This document shows positions 15,227 to 27,443 of a stretch of 64,000 bases of DNA, piece after piece (within the stretch, counting starts at the first letter, position 1; each line of letters opens with the position of its first letter). The notes under the pieces are model-generated. The model was not told the origin of the DNA, ran no database searches, and saw only the letters and a program-made list of their open reading frames with translations. A program made the translations under genes and the position numbers. Source of the stretch: a virus (taxonomy: Duplodnaviria; Heunggongvirae; Uroviricota; Caudoviricetes); IMG/VR virus record IMGVR_UViG_3300037455_000372, positions 75,710 through 139,709 of that record; one strand, written 5' to 3'.

Positions 15227-15234
15227 AGTTTATA
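15227..15234 (-). promoter_or_regulatory. Putative late promoter TATAAACT
   Basis: Follows a terminator; 25 nt upstream of ATG 15201. Confidence 0.6.
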
Positions 15235-17189: not shown

Positions 17190-20100
17190 CTACGATCGAA
17201 ACGTTGGATATTTCCACGGAACCACAGTCGCGTTGGTCGGTTCGCTAGTAACATAAGTTTGGTTCTGCGGTATGATATAACCAACGGATGCATTTCCACC
17301 AATAAGCCTCATACTCGAAATGATGCTACCAAGAAGATTAGTAGAAACCCAAATTTCAGCACTGGTTTCACTCTTCGCTACGACATACATCGACATACTA
17401 GACAAGGTCGTCACCGAAGTCGGTAGCGTTTTGCTGCAATTTAGTACCACACATTTGCTATCAGTACCAACATTACTCGTAAAATCGATATTAAACGACA
17501 TTATAGCAGAACCGCTATACCCAACAGCCTGTACGAACGTCAGCACAAGCATTACACCAGCGGAGGCACTAGCCCTGTCAGGGAATGACACATTTGCCAA
17601 GTGCATATAATTCGTTCCAGCACCAGCAAGCGGCTTCAGAATACCAGCAAACTGGTCGGTCAATTTCTTCTCAAGGTCAGTAACGTCAACCAAGTAAGCA
17701 AGCTCTTGGCTCAAATAACCAATCGCTTGAGTAGGCTTCTTGTGGATGTCATCAGGGAAGTTGACATTCTGAACTTGAAGCTTCGGGTGAGGCAAGTCGT
17801 GGTTATTGTGTTCTTGGAGACCGCACGACACGTTACCCGGCAAGATAAGCTGAGCCGTAGACCATATGTTACCATCCTTAGCGTCATTCGTCTGGATGTA
17901 ATGCGTGTTCGAAATTACGTGGTATGCGCCGATATAGTTCGAATACGATTCTTCCGACGGATGCGAGTTGATCGCGTGGTTCTTCCACATAAAGTAGTGA
18001 CCCGGATATTTAATGTAAGCGGACACTTGCTTATTGTCGGCATTTCCCATATAAAAGTCCATCAAGCCGCGACTATCAGAGGTATCGGCGGTCAATGCGC
18101 CCATAGAGATGCCGTGAAGAGTCAAGGCACCATATTCGCCGTGGATGTACTTAGTCGTATGCAGCCTAATACCGCCAGAACCGTGAATACCGATGTTATC
18201 CAATGCCCACATAGTAATGGACATATCTTTGCCACCGCTACGAACCTGATTGTTGTAGAATTCGAGCCAGTTATTTTCATCGGAGGCTTCTTCCGTAGAC
18301 GAATCGTACTGCCAAGAACCGGCGTGAATACCGATAGCACCTTCGTGGCACTCGGCTTCAAGGAGAACCTTGTTACTGTTCGGATTCTTTTCAGTCGACA
18401 TCGGATGCGCGATAATGCTGCTTCGACCGATACCAAGCGCGGTATGCTCGTGAGACACACGAAGGACTGCACGAGTTTCATCAAGCTGTTCATCATCAAG
18501 GTCATACGCATAAACACCGGCATACTTTTCGATACCGTAGTTCACGTAGTCTTCGTCATACTTACGGTTTTCCTTATAAGACGCATCGCCGTGAACGTAC
18601 TGGGTCGCCGTCGAATAGTCGGAAATACCAAAGTTGATGTACTGAGCAGACGTGCGCATATAGCTGTAGTTCTTCGCCACCACAAACGCGTTATGACGAT
18701 AAGTATTACCGTCAATATAGCTGCTACCATTACCGATAATGAACAGTGGACGCATCAATTCAGAGTTGGACTGACCAGCGACAAACTGGTGTCTTCCACC
18801 AGCAACCGTATTGAAACCAAATGCAGCCGACGCATACGGACCGTCATTTTCCAATCGGATGAACTTGTTGAAATCGTTACATACAGGCAGCTGGTAAGTA
18901 TGACGACGAGCTACATAGCCGTCAGTCACTTCTCCATTGACACCGGGGAAACGGTTCACCGAGTTGTCAAACGTAACCACAAGACCGTAAGAACGCATTT
19001 CCAGTGCCGTCACCGTACGGTCAAGATAGTTGCCCATATTCGGGATGCCTTTATCGTTATATACGCGAGGACGAGACAGACGGACAAAGTCGCCTACCTT
19101 AATATCGCCATATCCGTAAGGAGCCGTATCATAGCCAGAGGAAATCCTATTCTGTCCAGAATGGAAACCAGACTGAGCCAACGTATCAGTCGTAATGAGA
19201 ATCTGGTTCGGACCGATAGTTCCATTTGCGTCCGCACCGTTGCCAGCTGCACCAGTCAGCTGAAGATTGTAGACACAACCATCCTCGGTCGTAAACGTAT
19301 CTACGCAGTCAGTAACCGTATTGGCATTAGCCGCCTTCACATAACGCTGGAACGAGAACGCATAGCCACCGACATTGTTATTTTCGTTAGCGGCAAAGCC
19401 ATACTGGCCAGTAACAAAGTTACCAAGACCACCGGCTATTGCGCCATAGATACTCTGCACGGTTCCCCAGTGGCCACCAAGGATTCCGCTTTCTTCGCTA
19501 TACACAAAATTGTAAGCACCACCAACGGCGGCACTATGCTTACCGTAAACTTGGTTATACAAGCCGTAGCTAAACGTATTCGGACCGAATGCATAAGAAT
19601 CAGTACCGCCAGCGAGGGAATTAAGGGTTCCAAGCGTCTGATAGTTGGTGTCACGAACCTTCGCGACTTCCGGATTCTGAACGCCGATAATCGTACGGTC
19701 TGCACCGATCGTCATCTTGTCGTCAATGTCGAAGAACCATTCTCGGCCTCCACCGACGTGCGACGCATTATCACCGCTGAAACCCAGTGTATCGAGCGTA
19801 TAATAGGCACGAGGGAACAGATAGGTTTCGAACTGGTCGAAATGCTTCGTAGACAAGTTCTCGTCGTAAATCGGCGTACGAAGGTTAATGGGAATCGGAG
19901 CACTGTTCGTGAACATCTTGGGGTTCACTTGGTTCTTGACCTTGTCCAGCCAGTACGAATCGTCGGCGACACCGACATCGGTCGTCGTCATCGTCATAAT
20001 CTTCGAGTGCTGCACGATAGCGTAGGTTACCGGGGTATCGCTAACCATTCCTTGGCCGTCGGCGTACTGCGCGTCCAGCTTTTCGCGGATAGTATCAAAC

Positions 20101-20321
20101 TGATCCTTGTCGAAACGAGTGTACTCCCACTCGGTATAGAAGGAACTCAAAAGGAAGATATCAGTCCTCGTCATCGTTACTTCCACACCAGCACGTTCCA
20201 CCGTCCAGCCAGTGCTGGAACCGGCTGCCATTACAGAACGGATAAGTGCGTTGAGGACACTTCGAGAGTTATAGGTCAGCGCATCCAGCTGCTTAGTAAG
20301 CTCGTGTAGATTCGTAGACAT
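17190..20321 (-). CDS. Tail fibre / receptor-binding protein
   Basis: 1043 aa; Gly/Asn beta-helix (YadA-head-like) repeats such as GKHSAAVGGAYN; FIIGNG...RHNAFVV motif; late motif at 20349. Confidence 0.75.
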   Translation of the reverse strand: MSTNLHELTKQLDALTYNSRSVLNALIRSVMAAGSSTGWTVERAGVEVTMTRTDIFLLSSFYTEWEYTRFDKDQFDTIREKLDAQYADGQGMVSDTPVTYAIVQHSKIMTMTTTDVGVADDSYWLDKVKNQVNPKMFTNSAPIPINLRTPIYDENLSTKHFDQFETYLFPRAYYTLDTLGFSGDNASHVGGGREWFFDIDDKMTIGADRTIIGVQNPEVAKVRDTNYQTLGTLNSLAGGTDSYAFGPNTFSYGLYNQVYGKHSAAVGGAYNFVYSEESGILGGHWGTVQSIYGAIAGGLGNFVTGQYGFAANENNNVGGYAFSFQRYVKAANANTVTDCVDTFTTEDGCVYNLQLTGAAGNGADANGTIGPNQILITTDTLAQSGFHSGQNRISSGYDTAPYGYGDIKVGDFVRLSRPRVYNDKGIPNMGNYLDRTVTALEMRSYGLVVTFDNSVNRFPGVNGEVTDGYVARRHTYQLPVCNDFNKFIRLENDGPYASAAFGFNTVAGGRHQFVAGQSNSELMRPLFIIGNGSSYIDGNTYRHNAFVVAKNYSYMRTSAQYINFGISDYSTATQYVHGDASYKENRKYDEDYVNYGIEKYAGVYAYDLDDEQLDETRAVLRVSHEHTALGIGRSSIIAHPMSTEKNPNSNKVLLEAECHEGAIGIHAGSWQYDSSTEEASDENNWLEFYNNQVRSGGKDMSITMWALDNIGIHGSGGIRLHTTKYIHGEYGALTLHGISMGALTADTSDSRGLMDFYMGNADNKQVSAYIKYPGHYFMWKNHAINSHPSEESYSNYIGAYHVISNTHYIQTNDAKDGNIWSTAQLILPGNVSCGLQEHNNHDLPHPKLQVQNVNFPDDIHKKPTQAIGYLSQELAYLVDVTDLEKKLTDQFAGILKPLAGAGTNYMHLANVSFPDRASASAGVMLVLTFVQAVGYSGSAIMSFNIDFTSNVGTDSKCVVLNCSKTLPTSVTTLSSMSMYVVAKSETSAEIWVSTNLLGSIISSMRLIGGNASVGYIIPQNQTYVTSEPTNATVVPWKYPTFRS

Positions 20322-20348: not shown

Positions 20349-20356
20349 AGTTTATA
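20349..20356 (-). promoter_or_regulatory. Putative late promoter TATAAACT
   Basis: Directly after terminator 20373-20396. Confidence 0.6.
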
Positions 20357-20372: not shown

Positions 20373-20396
20373 AAAAGCCAGTCTTTCGGACTGGCT
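20373..20396 (-). terminator. Intrinsic terminator ending the fibre/rSAM/GT transcript
   Basis: AGCCAGTCC-GAAA-GACTGGCT-TTT on the minus strand. Confidence 0.75.
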
Positions 20397-20402
20397 GGGT
20401 AT

Positions 20403-21533
20403 TTAGTTGGAATATTCGTACATTGGTGTGCCAAAACCGCCCATCATCTGCGACCCGATGCCGGCCGCCGAGTAATCTCGGCCTCTCTGGTACATCTCGA
20501 CCCTTTCCGGCATCATCGGCTGCATATTCGAGAACTCGGCCTTCTTCATAGCGTCGTTGTACATCTCAATATGGCGGTGACGGTCATAGATTTCCGGGTT
20601 AATCCACATATGGGACGGCCTGATGACCTTGTTGATTTTGAGCAGCTGGTCTAGGCACTTCGCGGCCATCTTGAAGTTCCCGACGGCGTACTGGTACTTC
20701 GCACGGTAGTAGAACCCCTCCGGACGCATAGGAAGCTCCTCGATCATCTGCATAGAGCGGTTTCCCATCGTAATCAAGTCATTCTGCCTCAGAGCGATGT
20801 CGCACAATGCTTCCATCGACTTGGCGCGTTCCTCGTTAAGCATAGACGGGAACTCGTCTACGGTTACCTCGTACCAAGCCTTGGCCGTCTCGAAATCGTT
20901 GATATCCCGTGCCGAATTGCCCAGATAGAAGGCAGACCGCTGGGTGTGCTGCAGCTTCCAATCCTTGAGCAAGGTCTTCACGTTTCTGGACACGTCTCGA
21001 TACTTCTTGAAGTTGTCGAACATAAAGCGAGTGGTCACCACTTGCCTGTCCTTGGAGGTATTGACCATATACTCGTGGATTCTGCCCTCAAAATGGGCAT
21101 ATTCCTTCGGAGCTATACGAACCCTTGGGAAAGCAAAAGACGAGTCCACACGGGTCAACAGGGTTATACTGGCGTGCGGTATCTTGTTGACTATCTTGTC
21201 AAACGCGTCCCTAACCTTTGGCGCGTTGACCAGTATGTCATTCACGTCCACCCACAGCACATAGGGACAAGAGGCAATCTTGATTGCGTAGTTCTTGGCT
21301 CCGCCGAAGTCAAAAATGCCGTCCTCGTCGTGGAATAGGCGGCCAACTTGTTCAAGCACGACACGAGAACCCGGATGGCGAGCCTTCCAGTCGTTCACCA
21401 GCTCGACCGTACCGTCAGTGGAGCCGGTGTCCACGATAACGTACTCGTTCACAAGCGGAAGAAGAGCGTCGAGACAACGCACGACGCTCGCCTTACCGTT
21501 GCGGACTACTAGGCATCCGCTCAATCCAGCCAT
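20403..21533 (-). CDS. Family 2 glycosyltransferase with C-terminal TPR repeats
   Basis: CLVVRNG, IVDTGSTDGT, DFGGAKN, FEGRIHE motifs; TPR-like AFYLGNS.. and GFYYRAK..; start re-assigned to ATG 21533 (AAGGA SD). Confidence 0.9.
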   Translation of the reverse strand: MAGLSGCLVVRNGKASVVRCLDALLPLVNEYVIVDTGSTDGTVELVNDWKARHPGSRVVLEQVGRLFHDEDGIFDFGGAKNYAIKIASCPYVLWVDVNDILVNAPKVRDAFDKIVNKIPHASITLLTRVDSSFAFPRVRIAPKEYAHFEGRIHEYMVNTSKDRQVVTTRFMFDNFKKYRDVSRNVKTLLKDWKLQHTQRSAFYLGNSARDINDFETAKAWYEVTVDEFPSMLNEERAKSMEALCDIALRQNDLITMGNRSMQMIEELPMRPEGFYYRAKYQYAVGNFKMAAKCLDQLLKINKVIRPSHMWINPEIYDRHRHIEMYNDAMKKAEFSNMQPMMPERVEMYQRGRDYSAAGIGSQMMGGFGTPMYEYSN

Positions 21534-21535
21534 AA

Positions 21536-22555
21536 CTATTCCTTGTTGGAATCCTCGGCGAAGTCGATCATCGGTGCAAGAGCATCGAAGACTTCCCAAG
21601 TGTTGATGTGCTCGCCGTCAGCGAATTCCGGAACGTCGTCCATAGTGACCAACTGGAGGTCAATGGTGACATTTTCCTTGAAATAAGCCTGACGCTCGGT
21701 ACCCATCTTCTGTTCGGCCTCGATAGCGTCCTTGTACTCTTCGATGAGCTTGCGCTGACGTTCCTGAATAGCGTTAAACTTTTCCGGGTCATTGGCAGCC
21801 AAGGCGCGGAGCTGGTCGTCGTTCACGATACCTTCCTCGCCAAAGATAGCCAGACGATTCTGGTCGTATTCGATGAACTTCGGGTCTACCGGGTAGGCTT
21901 CGTAGCAAAGCTTACGCTCTTCTTCAGCCTTTTCACGGTTATACTTGACCGCAGCATAGAACTTGCTGGACACGTTGTTTCCGAAAATCATCTCAGCCTG
22001 ATACAAAACACCGTTCATCTTGAGAATCTTTTCACGTTCGACCGTCTTGGTAGTCACCTTAGAAGGGTAGGTCACCATAGGTTCAAGCGCATTAAGCACG
22101 TACCAAGCTTTAAAACCAGATTTCGGGTCGATTTCTGGCAATTCGGAGCTGGAAATCTGGCGAATTTCGATTTCGAGGTCTTCCTTGAAGAACTCATTTC
22201 GAGCTTCCGCCATCTTGTTTTCGGCTTCGATGGCATCCTTGTACTCTTCAGCGAGCTTACGCTGGCGTTCCTGAATAGCGTTGAACTTTTCCGGTTCCTT
22301 TACGGACAGTTCACGAAGCTGCTCATCGGTATGAATGCCTTCTTCGGAAAAGATTCCGAGACGTTTCTGGTCGTATTCGAGATAAGTTTGGTCTACCGGG
22401 TAGGCTTCGTAGCAAAGTTTACGTTCTTCTTCGGCCTTGTTACGGTTACGAGTGACCGTGTAGTAGAACTTTCCAGAGATCGGAGCCTTGAAAATGCGTT
22501 CGGCTTGCTGGAGAATGCTGTTAAGCAAAAGGAGCTTTTCGCGTTTAATCTTCAT
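21536..22555 (-). CDS. Protein with a tandem duplication of a ~160-aa helical domain (possible tail-assembly chaperone)
   Basis: Repeats KFYYTVTRNRNKAEEERKLCYEAYPVD / KFYAAVKYNREKAEEERKLCYEAYPVD; the repeat is also visible at DNA level. Confidence 0.8.
   Translation of the reverse strand: MKIKREKLLLLNSILQQAERIFKAPISGKFYYTVTRNRNKAEEERKLCYEAYPVDQTYLEYDQKRLGIFSEEGIHTDEQLRELSVKEPEKFNAIQERQRKLAEEYKDAIEAENKMAEARNEFFKEDLEIEIRQISSSELPEIDPKSGFKAWYVLNALEPMVTYPSKVTTKTVEREKILKMNGVLYQAEMIFGNNVSSKFYAAVKYNREKAEEERKLCYEAYPVDPKFIEYDQNRLAIFGEEGIVNDDQLRALAANDPEKFNAIQERQRKLIEEYKDAIEAEQKMGTERQAYFKENVTIDLQLVTMDDVPEFADGEHINTWEVFDALAPMIDFAEDSNKE
21560..22555 (-). repeat. Intragenic tandem duplication (two units of ~490 nt)
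   Basis: Near-identical blocks, e.g. GTCTACCGGGTAGGCTTCGTAGCAAAG at ~21884 and ~22391. Confidence 0.85.
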
Positions 22556-22595
22556 AAGAACCCTTATGTATGTTATTCCTTCGAGTTAAATTAGT

Positions 22596-23249
22596 TCATT
22601 CTTTCCAAGAGTTTGGCATAAATATCCAAGCATCTTTGGCGGCCTTGCAATGAGGACAACAAATAGTGGACTTTAGTGTGGTAAATTCCAATGCATACTT
22701 GTCTGGCCACTCGGTATATTGAACCGGCCTAGCTTTGCATCCGACCGGATGTCCGTGTGGATCCATAAAACCACATAATTTGAAGCTATGCTCTTCATCG
22801 GGCAAACAATCGTCGTTAAACCCGATTACACGGTATTGCCAGCCCATTTTTTCACAATATTTTACCTTTTCTTCACTCTGAACCGTATCCACAATCAAAA
22901 TCTGGTCAAATGAAACCGGTGGATTATCCAACTGGTGAAATGCGGCGACTCTTACGACATTGGGGAACTTTTGTATAGGTATCTTTCCGTTAGTCTTTAC
23001 CAGCGTCCTATACTTATTAGACGACAACCAACTGCATAATTGATTGATCCCATCATACAAAGACGGCTCTCCGCCAGTCAGCTCAATTATCCAATCTCTT
23101 GGACTCAAATTTTTTCGAATCCACGGAACTAGCCGTGCATTAGTTAGCTTGAACTTGTCATTGTCGGTATTGCGATACTTTGCCATAGGGCAATGCCAGC
23201 AAGACAAGTTACAAGAACTGGTTAATGAAATCTGGAAAAAGTTAAGCAT
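22596..23249 (-). CDS. Radical SAM protein
   Basis: CNLSCWHC (CxxxCxxC), ELTGGEP, and extra C-terminal Cys (CGF..GC...CCPHC) suggesting an auxiliary cluster. Confidence 0.88.
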   Translation of the reverse strand: MLNFFQISLTSSCNLSCWHCPMAKYRNTDNDKFKLTNARLVPWIRKNLSPRDWIIELTGGEPSLYDGINQLCSWLSSNKYRTLVKTNGKIPIQKFPNVVRVAAFHQLDNPPVSFDQILIVDTVQSEEKVKYCEKMGWQYRVIGFNDDCLPDEEHSFKLCGFMDPHGHPVGCKARPVQYTEWPDKYALEFTTLKSTICCPHCKAAKDAWIFMPNSWKE

Positions 23250-26200
23250 TAGTCTCCAGATGTACGCATCGGGCTACCGCTTTGAGAACCGATATAGATA
23301 TAGAGCGAAGGGTCTCCATCTTCAGTTTCAGCAGCCAGATCTCTGAACAAGAAACCACAGCACGCTTCACCAGCAAGAGTAGCATAGACCATTTGGAAAT
23401 TACCACGGTGACCCATCATTTCCGATTGCATACGGTTGGTTTCAAAATACACGACCGGAAGCGTACCATTTCGAAGCATTTCATCAATCTGACTCATAAG
23501 GTCAGAAATAGTCACGCCAGTCGGCAGCGTAAATGAAGTCGTTTGCGTGTCATAGTTATATTCTTCCTTACCGATATTGATCAAGTTACTACCGCCGCCA
23601 GCCGCTCTACCAAGGCCAATGTGTAGAGTTCCGTCAAGTTCTTGCTTGTCTTGTACAACGAGCGTCATTCCCTTGAACGGAGAATCAACCATCAAGTGAT
23701 GAACATCAGAGACAGACGGGTTGTAATAGTCGTATATGGCGTCACCAGTCGTATCATATCGACGGTAACCCACCCATACACGAAGTCTATCGCTTGCCGC
23801 CGTGGAAATCGTACCGGTCATCGTAGATTCGCCAGCAGTATACGACACCGTCATCGTACCATATTCGGTATCGTTGACTTCGTTTCCGTTATTATCAAGC
23901 TTAATAGTATACAACGTCATCGTTATTGTCGCAGTAGCGTCAACCACTTCGCCATAAGGTAAAGTGTAAGTAAACGTCGTCGAGCCAGCCTCCAAATCGC
24001 CAGCATACACGCTTCCGGTACGCCAGAGATACGTCGTATTTTCAGCAGTTTCCGTCCACGGTCCAGTCACGTTTGTACCACGGATAACCTTTGTGAACGT
24101 ACTGCTACTACTAATTTGCGCATAAGCGATGTTGTTGTTGGTATTGAAGCCGTTGTCTATATGGGTATGATTTTCATTCGGATTAGTCATCGTATAACGA
24201 GATGTACCCACCTTCATCAGCATAAAGTTACATTCGTCAGTGCCATAACCACCCAACGCAATACCGCCAGTATAAATCATCGGCGAATTGCACGGTGAAT
24301 ACAAATCCTTAATCGTATATGCCCAGCCTTGGGAATTGTTTGTCTCAGCAAGTCTCGTCATTAAGTTAGACACTTCATTGCTTTCGACACCATACCAATA
24401 TGCGTGACCGTATACCGTTTTATCATCACCGATAAACACGAACTTATCTTTAAAGACAGCATCCTTGTATAATGTGGAAGAACTCTGCTGCGCAGCGATT
24501 AAATGACCAGTCGTCGTACTCGAACCCGATATACTCGTATCTTGGGTAGTATTGGTATGGCCAATCCACCAAACATTATCAAAATGACCGAACGGACCCG
24601 GCGTGTTATCACGCTGATATCCAATATCATCACCCAATGTGTTAATGAAAGAGTTGGTATATTTAATCTTTCGAGTACCACTCTTGTCACCCAATATAAT
24701 CGAATTCGAGCTGCCATAGCCAGCGTTCAAATCATCACCGAGCATCAGCATATTCTTGTAGTTACCCGGCTTGCTGTACAAGTTGGCGAAATATTCCGGA
24801 TTTGTATTGAAATCATCCGCACCAGTTCCACAAGTGTGGCCACCACTCCAAATGTAATTGCCGTAGGTGATATACAGCGTAACACCCCTTACGGTCTTGG
24901 TAATCGTAGTAGGGGTACCCGACTGGCCATTCAACATCGTAAGTTCACCACTTCCAACAACCACGATGTTTCGCTTGTAAACTGGGGTTGTTCCCGAAGT
25001 ATCGGTAGTCGTCCAGATAAAATCATCGGAGGGGTACGGCCAACGATCAGTATTACCATAGCGTTCATTAAACTCCTCGACCGTCATAATGCCGTCTTTA
25101 GCGAACGAATACGGCGTAGCAGCCTTGTTCATCCGGTTACCAATCATAATCACATTTTCAGACCTAGACGGAATTACACTATCGGTACCGGCAGCGTAAA
25201 TTCCACGAGCATTACGTTGCACCGTGTTCAAAGAACCAATGCTAGATACCCCAAACACGCCGCCCGTCACCGACGGGAAGATAGAAGTTTCGGAGTAATT
25301 TTGGGAATTCATATAGTACGGGTCCATATCGGAAGCAATGTCGTAGCTACCGATAGTTTGGGTTCCGCCCCACGTACCAGCACCAATAATCAAAGAGTCG
25401 TCAATCTGAGCGATAGCATTATTGCGGCCAATGAAAACCGATTCGCGAGTGCTACCATTCTTAAAATCGCCTTTATAAGCCGAGCCATCAATATCATTCA
25501 GCACGTCATTGTGACCGAGCGCAATCGTGTTCTGTGCGGTACCGTTTACATACACCGCAGAGTCGCTAGACATCCAAATAGAGCCGCGCAAATATTGCAG
25601 TTCGCCCGAACTACCTACGTTGATGATGCTGTTGTGGGAATCCGTCACAGCAAGGTGGTCATCATTAAATACCTTGCCATCGTACTTTCCTTTACCGCCC
25701 ATCAACAATACGTGAGACGAATCTTGGTCAATCAAACCATAATTCGACATATTGATGCTGTACTTACCGGCGGCCAAGCTATCCTTACCGAGAACCATCG
25801 AGTTTTCGCCGACAGTATAGCCGTTTACTTCAATCATCTTGGTAACGGTAGACGGATCGGTATCATCAGCGTACCCCTTACCGCGAGTCAAATATACCGT
25901 GTAGTTTTCATACTCAGGCATCGTATAGATACCACGGACAGCACCAAAGTTTACGTCGACACTATCCACGATATTACGCATATACGGGTGAGTATGGTTA
26001 CGGAAAGCCCACATATCACCGTCGTCACCAACACCGCAATCCGCACCGCGAGAGTTCAGAGCCTCTACCATATTGCGGAGGTAGTTGAGTTCGACACCCA
26101 ACGTAGTCACCGCTTCAGAGGTGCTTGCATTTGCAAGGAGCTGGTTCTTGTACCAAGTGATAGCATCATTCTCGTACAAGTTGTAGAAGATAACCGGGTC

Positions 26201-27403
26201 GTTCACAAGAGCGGTATCTTCTTGGAAGTTGACGCTGAAATCGATATTGAACTTGGTGAGACCGGTCTCACTCATTTCAATAGTGTCGGTATCGATAACC
26301 GCGAAAAGAATCGGGTCTTCGTCACCGTTCACTTCGAGCTGAACCTTGTTGCCGCCGCACTTCTCGTTATCGGCTGCGACCACATTGAACGCGTGAAGCG
26401 TAACCGGAACAGCATAAAGGCCGATACGGTTGAACTTGAAGCTAATCTTCGGAGCGTCAGGGTTGTTGATACGCTGGGAAGACATCTTCATATAGTCGGC
26501 AATGTTGATGCTGATCTTGTACTTTACAGTGCCGACTTTGGCATTGTCAAGGTTAGTGCTGCTCTTGCCAGCTTCGAGATTCTGGATATGGCCACCATCA
26601 CGGATAATCGTAGACATATCGTAATGGTCAATCGGGAAATACTTCGTTACCTTCGCCATATTACGGCAAGCCGGGTCGTGAGCGACCGCATAGCCTTCAC
26701 TTGACGACGGTGCGTGATAACGGTTGAAGTTCGAAATGGACGGCATCGCCTTCGTCGTATCGGCGAAATCACCACCTTCGGTACGTGTAGTCTCATTGGA
26801 CGCGCTCCAACCCGGTTCACCGGTCTTCTCAGAGTAGTTACGCATATCCGGCGTAACGGAATTCGCCACTGGGGTATCGTTTTTCGCTGCGTAGTAGAGA
26901 GGAGCCGGAAGCGGGAGACCATATTCATCGACTTGGATATTGGACTCGGCGTTCGACGGAGTCATTTCGCCGCCGACACCAAGGTAGGTACGGAACAGAG
27001 CATACTGAGACGGGTCAGATGCATCCTGACCGTAGGTAACTAGCGTGTTAATCTTGTTACCCTTGCTATCCGTAGAAAGCGCGTAGCGGAAAGACGACTC
27101 AATGTTCTCGGCATAAAGGCACTGCTTGTAAAGCTTTCCAGCTGCAGAATCCACGTCGCCTTCGTCGAACCCGGCGACCGTGTCCGCCATAGATCCTTGG
27201 AAGATGTTGAACAGTTCGTCACCAATAGGCTTGTCATTGACTCTAGGAACCAGAGTCACCATAGACTTCGAGAAATCTTGGCGATTCTCTTCGGGAATGT
27301 AAGCTAGGCCGTAATAACCAATCCAATATTGGGTGGTATCACCACCGGCAATCGAATTATTGAGAATGTCGAGACCACGGAGGGTAATAACGCTTCTGTT
27401 CAT
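23249..27403 (-). CDS. Long tail fibre / baseplate-fibre protein
   Basis: 1384 aa; N-terminal ITLRGLDIL...FNRIGLYAV fibre-attachment-like region; beta-helix-like repeats (NSIILG, SIINVG); late motif at 27436. Confidence 0.7.
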   Translation of the reverse strand: MNRSVITLRGLDILNNSIAGGDTTQYWIGYYGLAYIPEENRQDFSKSMVTLVPRVNDKPIGDELFNIFQGSMADTVAGFDEGDVDSAAGKLYKQCLYAENIESSFRYALSTDSKGNKINTLVTYGQDASDPSQYALFRTYLGVGGEMTPSNAESNIQVDEYGLPLPAPLYYAAKNDTPVANSVTPDMRNYSEKTGEPGWSASNETTRTEGGDFADTTKAMPSISNFNRYHAPSSSEGYAVAHDPACRNMAKVTKYFPIDHYDMSTIIRDGGHIQNLEAGKSSTNLDNAKVGTVKYKISINIADYMKMSSQRINNPDAPKISFKFNRIGLYAVPVTLHAFNVVAADNEKCGGNKVQLEVNGDEDPILFAVIDTDTIEMSETGLTKFNIDFSVNFQEDTALVNDPVIFYNLYENDAITWYKNQLLANASTSEAVTTLGVELNYLRNMVEALNSRGADCGVGDDGDMWAFRNHTHPYMRNIVDSVDVNFGAVRGIYTMPEYENYTVYLTRGKGYADDTDPSTVTKMIEVNGYTVGENSMVLGKDSLAAGKYSINMSNYGLIDQDSSHVLLMGGKGKYDGKVFNDDHLAVTDSHNSIINVGSSGELQYLRGSIWMSSDSAVYVNGTAQNTIALGHNDVLNDIDGSAYKGDFKNGSTRESVFIGRNNAIAQIDDSLIIGAGTWGGTQTIGSYDIASDMDPYYMNSQNYSETSIFPSVTGGVFGVSSIGSLNTVQRNARGIYAAGTDSVIPSRSENVIMIGNRMNKAATPYSFAKDGIMTVEEFNERYGNTDRWPYPSDDFIWTTTDTSGTTPVYKRNIVVVGSGELTMLNGQSGTPTTITKTVRGVTLYITYGNYIWSGGHTCGTGADDFNTNPEYFANLYSKPGNYKNMLMLGDDLNAGYGSSNSIILGDKSGTRKIKYTNSFINTLGDDIGYQRDNTPGPFGHFDNVWWIGHTNTTQDTSISGSSTTTGHLIAAQQSSSTLYKDAVFKDKFVFIGDDKTVYGHAYWYGVESNEVSNLMTRLAETNNSQGWAYTIKDLYSPCNSPMIYTGGIALGGYGTDECNFMLMKVGTSRYTMTNPNENHTHIDNGFNTNNNIAYAQISSSSTFTKVIRGTNVTGPWTETAENTTYLWRTGSVYAGDLEAGSTTFTYTLPYGEVVDATATITMTLYTIKLDNNGNEVNDTEYGTMTVSYTAGESTMTGTISTAASDRLRVWVGYRRYDTTGDAIYDYYNPSVSDVHHLMVDSPFKGMTLVVQDKQELDGTLHIGLGRAAGGGSNLINIGKEEYNYDTQTTSFTLPTGVTISDLMSQIDEMLRNGTLPVVYFETNRMQSEMMGHRGNFQMVYATLAGEACCGFLFRDLAAETEDGDPSLYIYIGSQSGSPMRTSGD

Positions 27404-27435: not shown

Positions 27436-27443
27436 AGTTTATA
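27436..27443 (-). promoter_or_regulatory. Putative late promoter TATAAACT
   Basis: 32 nt upstream of ATG 27403. Confidence 0.6.

Follow-up and report, generated by a model that had tools for sequence, protein, structure and literature searches.

A radical SAM gene exchanged with tail-fibre tips, and a separate glycosyltransferase gene pair, in the fibre region of a jumbo phage: a candidate site of fibre maturation

The receptor-binding tips of tail fibres set the host range of phages, and the folding helpers of such tips are the main obstacle to engineering and expressing them. Several classical modules pair a fibre tip with its cognate chaperone or adhesin, namely gp37/gp38 in T4, Stf/Tfa in lambda and S/U in Mu. 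Modules of fibre and chaperone move between unrelated phage families, as described for the Alteromonas phages A5 and V22 (PMC10579305). Sugars are attached to flagellins by O-glycosyltransferases that contain tetratricopeptide repeats (TPR), such as GmaR of Listeria (PMC9638930) and FlmG of Caulobacter (PMC7591256), and mycobacteriophages O-glycosylate their own virions, where mass spectrometry placed the modification on the C-termini of capsid and tail-tube proteins, according to the citation of Freeman et al. (2023, Cell Host Microbe 31:1216) in PMC11256854. Here we analyse a stretch of 64,000 nucleotides (the window; bases 75710-139709 of a 355-kb IMG/VR phage record) in which a fibre-type gene is followed by the genes of a small radical S-adenosylmethionine (SAM) enzyme (the rSAM), of a helical protein made of a tandem repeat (the repeat gene) and of a family 2 glycosyltransferase with TPR (the GT). 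The sequencing runs, both RNA and DNA, that share sequence with the window are bovine and sheep gut metagenomes.

We compared about 45 related loci, with the contexts of rSAM homologues taken from assemblies and IMG/VR; the counts given for the rSAM are out of 30 loci. Judged by gene order and phylogeny, the rSAM belongs with the fibre tip and not with the GT. We give an even chance to the view that the locus is a fibre-maturation region, with two separable modules on one late transcript. The most likely assignment of roles, as far as sequence can suggest one, is that the rSAM would be a tip-specific fibre maturase and that the GT pair would glycosylate fibre proteins. The preliminary description had taken the three genes behind the fibre gene for one co-inherited system with one product, and this is not supported by the comparison. 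In about 20 of the 30 loci, small podovirus-like phages included, the rSAM occurs without the repeat gene or a GT (none within 6-10 kb), and the two accompany it in the jumbo clade only. Conversely, a 99%-identical strain and other relatives have the pair of GT and repeat gene but lack the rSAM: in L038, L042 and L043 no member of the window's rSAM family lies within 7 kb upstream of the pair.

What, then, ties the rSAM to the tip? The rSAM gene (217 amino acids (aa); 22596..23249, on the minus strand like the rest of the unit) starts within the stop codon of a 1384-aa fibre-type open reading frame (ORF; 23249..27403), the two overlapping as TAATG. A spacer of 40 nucleotides (nt) separates it from the repeat gene (21536..22555), which is in turn followed after 2 nt (TAG-TT-ATG) by the GT gene (20403..21533); all four genes, the overlap and both spacers are present as the preliminary description had them. 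The close contact with the upstream gene is general: in 19 of the 30 loci the rSAM begins within the stop codon of a co-directional ORF upstream, and the gap is 1-9 nt in nine and 35 nt in one, giving an overlap or a gap of at most 9 nt in 28. A single locus has no gene ending at the rSAM start; there, a 408-aa reverse-strand gene, probably an insertion, lies between the fibre-type gene and the rSAM (L018:4607-5833).

The proteins encoded directly upstream of the rSAM measure 175-1422 aa; by their C-termini they form at least four classes, unrelated to one another. In the window, the 1384-aa fibre has a conserved N-terminal part of ~480 aa, common to seven related jumbo phages, and a mosaic distal part; its tip, the last ~115 codons (23252..23604, minus strand), belongs to class A, which six further jumbo phages have as well. 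Class B occurs in a jumbo phage, L008, and in phages of ~35-45 kb with a P22-type portal and a family-A polymerase, and one class-B protein matches phrog_7389, tail fiber. Class C upstream proteins have ~210 aa, and class D proteins share N-termini. A scan with the class-B tip, which yielded only contigs already known and one truncated contig, found the rSAM at all five testable loci; the class-A alignment is too variable for such a pattern scan. The class-A tips have an invariant Cys in C-[GSA]-[YF]-[LM]-F. A conserved Cys motif common to all classes was considered and dropped, since A and B each have an invariant Cys of their own.

The rSAM tree follows the class of the fibre tip and not the phage backbone. 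The seven class-A rSAMs form a clade (support 98/96). L008 combines the fibre N-terminus, GT and helical protein of the jumbo phages with a class-B tip, which it shares with the ~40-kb phages that have a P22-type portal, and its rSAM nests among those of the small phages. The topology test rejects a tree in which all eight jumbo-backbone rSAMs are held together (delta lnL 89, p-AU 4e-106); the constrained group was defined by gene content, and the test was run after the tree had been seen. The GT, on the other hand, tracks the backbone: it is 80-88% identical in strains whose rSAMs are 57-67% and whose fibres are ~45% identical.

The exchange itself can be followed in L038, whose GT is 99% and whose helical/repeat protein is 97% identical to that of the window. 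Its fibre is 79% identical up to about residue 1268, where the identity stops at the boundary of the window's tip; beyond it, L038 has an unrelated tip of ~220 aa and no rSAM. The DNA identity resumes exactly at the rSAM stop, and the exchanged piece is window positions ~22599-23604 (compared with L038:1411-5880). A contig from a bovine RNA library (run X3) breaks at the same place, window position 22598, with L038-type sequence beyond. The RNA-library contigs of four runs leave 22710-23673, the rSAM and tip, uncovered, which carries no weight, the strains there apparently being the rSAM-less variant. Window and L038 constitute a natural pair of alleles, rSAM-plus and rSAM-less, for the function of the rSAM.

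Could the rSAM simply be a passenger, with a job unrelated to fibres, say in host metabolism or counter-defence, that moves with the tips because it sits at the recombination-prone end of a fibre gene? The 3' ends of fibre genes are known exchange hot spots (PMC10579305), the GC content of the rSAM and its GC content at third codon positions (GC3) are 42% and 0.445, both lower than in its neighbours (GC3 0.52-0.71), the tip classes have no common motif, and in L009 and L002 replication genes also lie in the neighbourhood. Yet 28 of the 30 loci keep the overlap or short gap, whichever of the four tip classes they have and over two or more types of virion, which argues for co-expression at a fixed ratio, and the rSAM sits in late structural units, where the timing would be poor for takeover or counter-defence. 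Moreover, the L038 swap takes tip and rSAM as a single piece with its boundary precisely at the rSAM stop, and no relative turned up when 185,579 cellular genomes were scanned for the pattern of the rSAM alignment. We consider a passenger unlikely.

The position behind the fibre stop can hold other enzymes. In L046, a different rSAM of 315 aa with weak SPASM similarity (L046:222-1169) overlaps the stop of its upstream gene and lies two genes upstream of a distant pair of helical protein and GT (GT 32% identical). In L039, whose GT is 93% identical to the window's, a 223-aa protein with a WGCED-type motif (P0201; L039:5257-5928) overlaps the fibre stop. P0201 has no match in Pfam, PDB or PHROG, and only language-model features place it with small GT2/Glyco_transf_7C enzymes; as a GT-A-like protein in the rSAM's slot it is a lead only. 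A related 425-kb phage has an HNH endonuclease gene (RRXRR + HNH) inserted just before the fibre gene (L006:5139-6410).

As for the enzyme itself, Pfam, PHROG and NCBIfam match it to generic radical SAM families only. It scores 27.1 bits against PF04055, just below the gathering threshold of 29.5, while its relatives P0215 and P0217 reach 39.9 and 37.5 bits and most homologues carry PF04055 as a precomputed annotation; the match to phrog_13987 has an E-value of 2e-10. In 24 homologues the residues C13, C17 and C20 (CX3CX2C) are invariant, as are the GGE SAM-binding motif in LTGGEP and four further Cys after the barrel, C132, C171, C198 and C201 (C198-x2-C201). The C...C...CxxC spacing of these four is what we take to be the twitch-cluster pattern of BtrN. 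The N-terminus extends only 12 residues ahead of CX3CX2C, leaving no extra N-terminal domain, and Pfam gives no match to the SPASM family PF13186. The family comprises ~170 clusters at 90% identity and ~100 at 50%, nearly all members being unnamed proteins of 195-300 aa; in the phage collection, neither megablast with the cassette nor tblastn with the rSAM gave a match.

The AlphaFold2 (AF2) model of the rSAM has a predicted local distance difference test score (pLDDT) of 93.7. Against it, 82 chains reach a Z of at least 8, and all listed ones are radical SAM enzymes, led by SuiB (VIA Z 14.0, root-mean-square deviation 3.6 over 189 aligned residues), MoaA (13.1) and SkfB (12.6), and including viperins and BlsE (12.4), PqqE, EpeE, anSME and BtrN. 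This model makes the class of fold secure, though not that of the substrate. Among the top structural neighbours are the peptide maturases SuiB, SkfB, EpeE, PqqE and anSME. Within the family, P0233 (387 aa) has an insertion of ~170 aa straight after CX3CX2C, and P0217 and P0249 have 40-60 aa at the same site. In P0215 (469 aa; L053:1126-2535), the rSAM is fused to a C-terminal GT2-like domain (PF00535 at 20.7 bits, below the cut-off) and preceded by a second, overlapping rSAM gene (L053:278-1129), a single case on a 2.8-kb contig. A complex prediction for the rSAM and the class-A tip gave a score of 0.00 with a partner pLDDT below 50, which we do not use as evidence either way.

The genes of the helical protein and of the GT make up the second module. 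They stand 0-4 nt apart in each of the relatives, whose identities run from 99% to 32%, and the pair always lies between giant fibre-type genes, with or without the rSAM. The tail-gene linkage asserted in the preliminary description holds in all the relatives found: the genes stay within the fibre cluster, and no loss of linkage was seen. Contigs from RNA libraries of four runs (three studies) span the junction of helical gene and GT, which fits expression and is no proof of a transcript. In the window, the 339-aa protein is a tandem duplication of a helical domain of ~170 aa, as had been noticed before, its halves (22046-22555 and 21539-22045) being 56% identical (E 1e-66). In most relatives the helical gene is single-copy and encodes 158-182 aa, and tandem duplication is seen in at least three lineages: the window with L038, L014, L039, and separately L045. 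This recurrence suggests that the helical protein works as a dimer. The AF2 model of the repeat protein is mostly helical (pLDDT 92.7) and has no match in the PDB (best E 2), and look-alikes in AFDB, BFVD and the ESM-Atlas are uncharacterised viral proteins only. One cluster of look-alikes carries DUF1617 on 11% of its members and two matches are named 'terminase', which we take as leads only. The alignment of relatives shows no polar or Cys residue conserved in a way that would point to catalysis; the importance given earlier to the Cys of the repeat protein falls away, as this Cys is not conserved.

The GT (376 aa) matches PF00535 with 35.2 bits (gathering threshold 23.3) over residues 8-97 and TPR_2 with 28.6 bits (cut-off 27) over residues 271-301. 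Its best sequence matches in the PDB are GmaR (2e-6) and the ThuS-like enzyme 7msk (1.5e-4), with SunS also found, so its earlier placing among the GT2 enzymes that glycosylate proteins or peptides agrees with its best solved relatives; against the SunS family model TIGR04195 it scores 21.3 bits, far below the cut-off of 350. It does carry the DVND pointed out before (D96-V-N-D99), where GmaR has DADE; among 17 homologues, D96 is invariant and D99 nearly so, with N, S, T, R or D at the third position. Alignment A2 of the GT family shows a short conserved tail after the TPR region, G-x-x-x-Y / G-D-x-Q-Y. By analogy with GmaR, FlmG and the glycosylation of mycobacteriophage virions, the GT pair most likely glycosylates fibre proteins.

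It might also act away from the virion, changing the host envelope (for example as a superinfection block) or some other non-structural target, or it might be a catalytically dead binding protein. PHROG lists its family as a beta-1,4-glycosyltransferase in the category 'moron, auxiliary metabolic gene', JGI labels relatives 'involved in cell wall biosynthesis', and the D-V-N-D with its variable third position is a non-canonical DxD. Nevertheless, the nearest solved relatives, GmaR, the ThuS-like enzyme and SunS, act on proteins or peptides, and the soluble TPR architecture is that of the flagellin glycosyltransferases (PMC9638930, PMC7591256). The pair has giant fibre genes on either side in all lineages, even at 32% identity, belongs to a late unit without a promoter motif of its own, and is under strong purifying selection, the GT being 80-99% identical where the fibres are 45-79% identical. 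We consider such a reading quite improbable.

The other alternative, which is that of the preliminary description, is an integrated sugar pathway. This pathway, in which the rSAM would tailor a nucleotide-sugar (by dehydration, epimerisation or C-C chemistry) and the GT would install the product on virion proteins, could draw on the sugar and nucleotide enzymes BlsE, DesII, BtrN and viperin among the rSAM's structural neighbours, on the P0215 fusion, on the GT-A-like protein of L039 and on the fact that rSAM, repeat gene and GT form one late unit here and in seven related jumbo phages, but it is distinctly unlikely given that the fusion is one case on a short contig, that each partner so often occurs without the other and that the rSAM phylogeny tracks tip class while the GT tracks backbone.

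Turning to the unit as a whole, the four genes look like a single late transcription unit. A late-promoter-like motif, TATAAACT (27436..27443, minus strand), precedes the 1384-aa fibre-type gene, and an intrinsic-terminator-like hairpin with a T-run (20373..20396, minus strand; -16.1 kcal/mol, z -4.6 against shuffled sequence) follows the GT; the next TATAAACT (20349..20356, minus strand) precedes a 1043-aa fibre-type gene (17190-20321). No copy of TATAAACT lies inside 20403-27403, and the preliminary description was right on the late unit, its motif and the stable terminator hairpin. The motif occurs 15 times in the window against 1.5 expected, a tenfold excess, mostly just 5' of structural genes (further sites lie at 15227, 34896, 40861, 46071 and 51569), and is probably the core of the late promoter in this phage. 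Upstream of the unit are T4-type baseplate-wedge genes (phrog_219), then a row of very large Gly/Ser/Thr/Asn-rich genes, presumed fibres. The base composition is uneven: GC is 42.0% in the rSAM, 48.5% in the repeat gene and 53.1% in the GT, with GC3 at 0.445, 0.60 and 0.71, the last being the highest in the neighbourhood. Hence the rSAM is indeed AT-richer than the other two, as hand-counted sample lines had indicated, while the 58% given for the GT overestimates the value of the complete gene.

How might such a locus work? In the fibre-maturation reading, the first module would be a host-recognition cassette, made of the C-terminal tip of the fibre and the translationally coupled minimal rSAM, at a site that in other phages is taken by the gene of a tail-fibre chaperone or adhesin. 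The rSAM is predicted to bind a SAM-cleaving [4Fe-4S] cluster through CX3CX2C, and probably also a second, fully Cys-ligated cluster of twitch-like type through C...C...CxxC. Inside its anaerobic host it would then perform a radical post-translational step on the co-encoded tip, candidate reactions being a cross-link, an epimerisation or an oxidation, and this modification may be needed for folding, stability or receptor binding. As the rSAM is an intact, strongly conserved radical enzyme with two clusters, catalysis on the tip would be the most economical explanation. The second module would be the conserved pair of the ~170-aa helical protein and the GT, in which the TPR part and the helical partner would recruit a protein substrate, most likely the surrounding Ser/Thr-rich fibre protein or proteins, and the GT-A domain may add a sugar to it. 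The more far-reaching proposal is that a phage-restricted family of minimal (~215-aa) two-cluster rSAMs modifies receptor-binding fibre tips post-translationally by radical chemistry, and that jumbo and small phages of anaerobic gut communities swap enzyme and tip together, as a host-range cassette of two parts; we regard it as possible rather than probable.

Several observations weigh against these assignments. The 217-aa rSAM has no RiPP recognition element (RRE; RiPP, ribosomally synthesised and post-translationally modified peptide) or other peptide-binding domain, and the gene adjoining it encodes a large fibre-type protein, not a short leader-bearing precursor peptide. The small-molecule enzymes MoaA, viperin, BlsE, DesII and BtrN stand among its structural neighbours too. 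The 1384-aa ORF is taken for a fibre on account of its position, size and mosaicism and not of a direct family match, as Pfam, PHROGs, PDB sequences and the phage collection have nothing similar. Comparison of the alignments found no residue or motif common to all tip classes, so that no common target site can be named. The loci were sampled mainly by searches seeded with the rSAM, and physical linkage at a recombination hot spot could alone give co-transfer. Finally, the GT is without the third-position Asp of the usual DxD, the family having D-x-[NSTR]-D, and its activity is accordingly not assured.

If the more far-reaching proposal is true, virion proteins would for the first time join the substrates of radical SAM chemistry, and fibre 'maturases' would form a new class next to the chaperones already known. 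If the rSAM is a required partner for a whole group of rumen and gut fibre tips, producing or transplanting such tips would call for the enzyme and for anaerobic conditions. For studies of mechanism, the rSAM would also serve as a two-cluster enzyme that is very small and well delimited. The GT pair adds to the growing genomic hints of fibre glycosylation in many large phages; beyond mycobacteriophage capsids and tail tubes, such glycosylation is not known to have been demonstrated so far. The cassette of rSAM and tip is the most interesting and most testable part of the locus. As an exchange module it appears undescribed, and our literature search found no paper tying a radical SAM enzyme to a tail-fibre tip. 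The known kinds that the locus touches are accessory modules of fibre tips, rSAM maturases and virion glycosylation.

Like the chaperone and adhesin modules, the rSAM gene lies directly 3' of a fibre gene and is swapped with the distal part of the fibre between morphologically different phages, and its presence or absence depends on the type of tip. Unlike them, it encodes an iron-sulfur enzyme without detectable similarity to Tfa, gp38 or intramolecular chaperone families (Pfam, PHROG, NCBIfam), which implies catalysis instead of, or besides, chaperoning. With SuiB, SkfB, EpeE/YydG, PqqE and anSME the rSAM has in common CX3CX2C, GGE and further Cys, putative ligands, after the barrel, and they are its best structural matches (Z 10-14); like them, it is encoded next to its presumed substrate. 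It differs from the SuiB-type maturases in having only 217 aa, no RRE and no match to the SPASM hidden Markov model, with identities of 12-20%, and its presumed substrate is no leader-bearing peptide but a folded tip, on a protein that may be as long as 1400 aa. MoaA and viperin score as high against it as the peptide maturases do.

The GT, like GmaR and FlmG and like the glycocin S-glycosyltransferases SunS and ThuS, joins a GT-A (GT2) domain to helical repeats of TPR type. Those are cytoplasmic enzymes acting on proteins bound for an extracellular filament; a comparable target for the window's GT is what we infer. The relationship to the GmaR/SunS group is very distant, ~25-30% identity over the first ~110 residues, and the GT departs from GmaR in its D-x-N-D in place of D-A-D-E, in being phage-restricted and in having a small helical partner gene dedicated to it. 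The mycobacteriophages, lastly, provide a precedent in purpose, phage-encoded glycosyltransferases for the phage's own structural proteins, shown there and proposed here, while in the window the targets would be fibres, the GT belongs to a different family, and an rSAM stands alongside.

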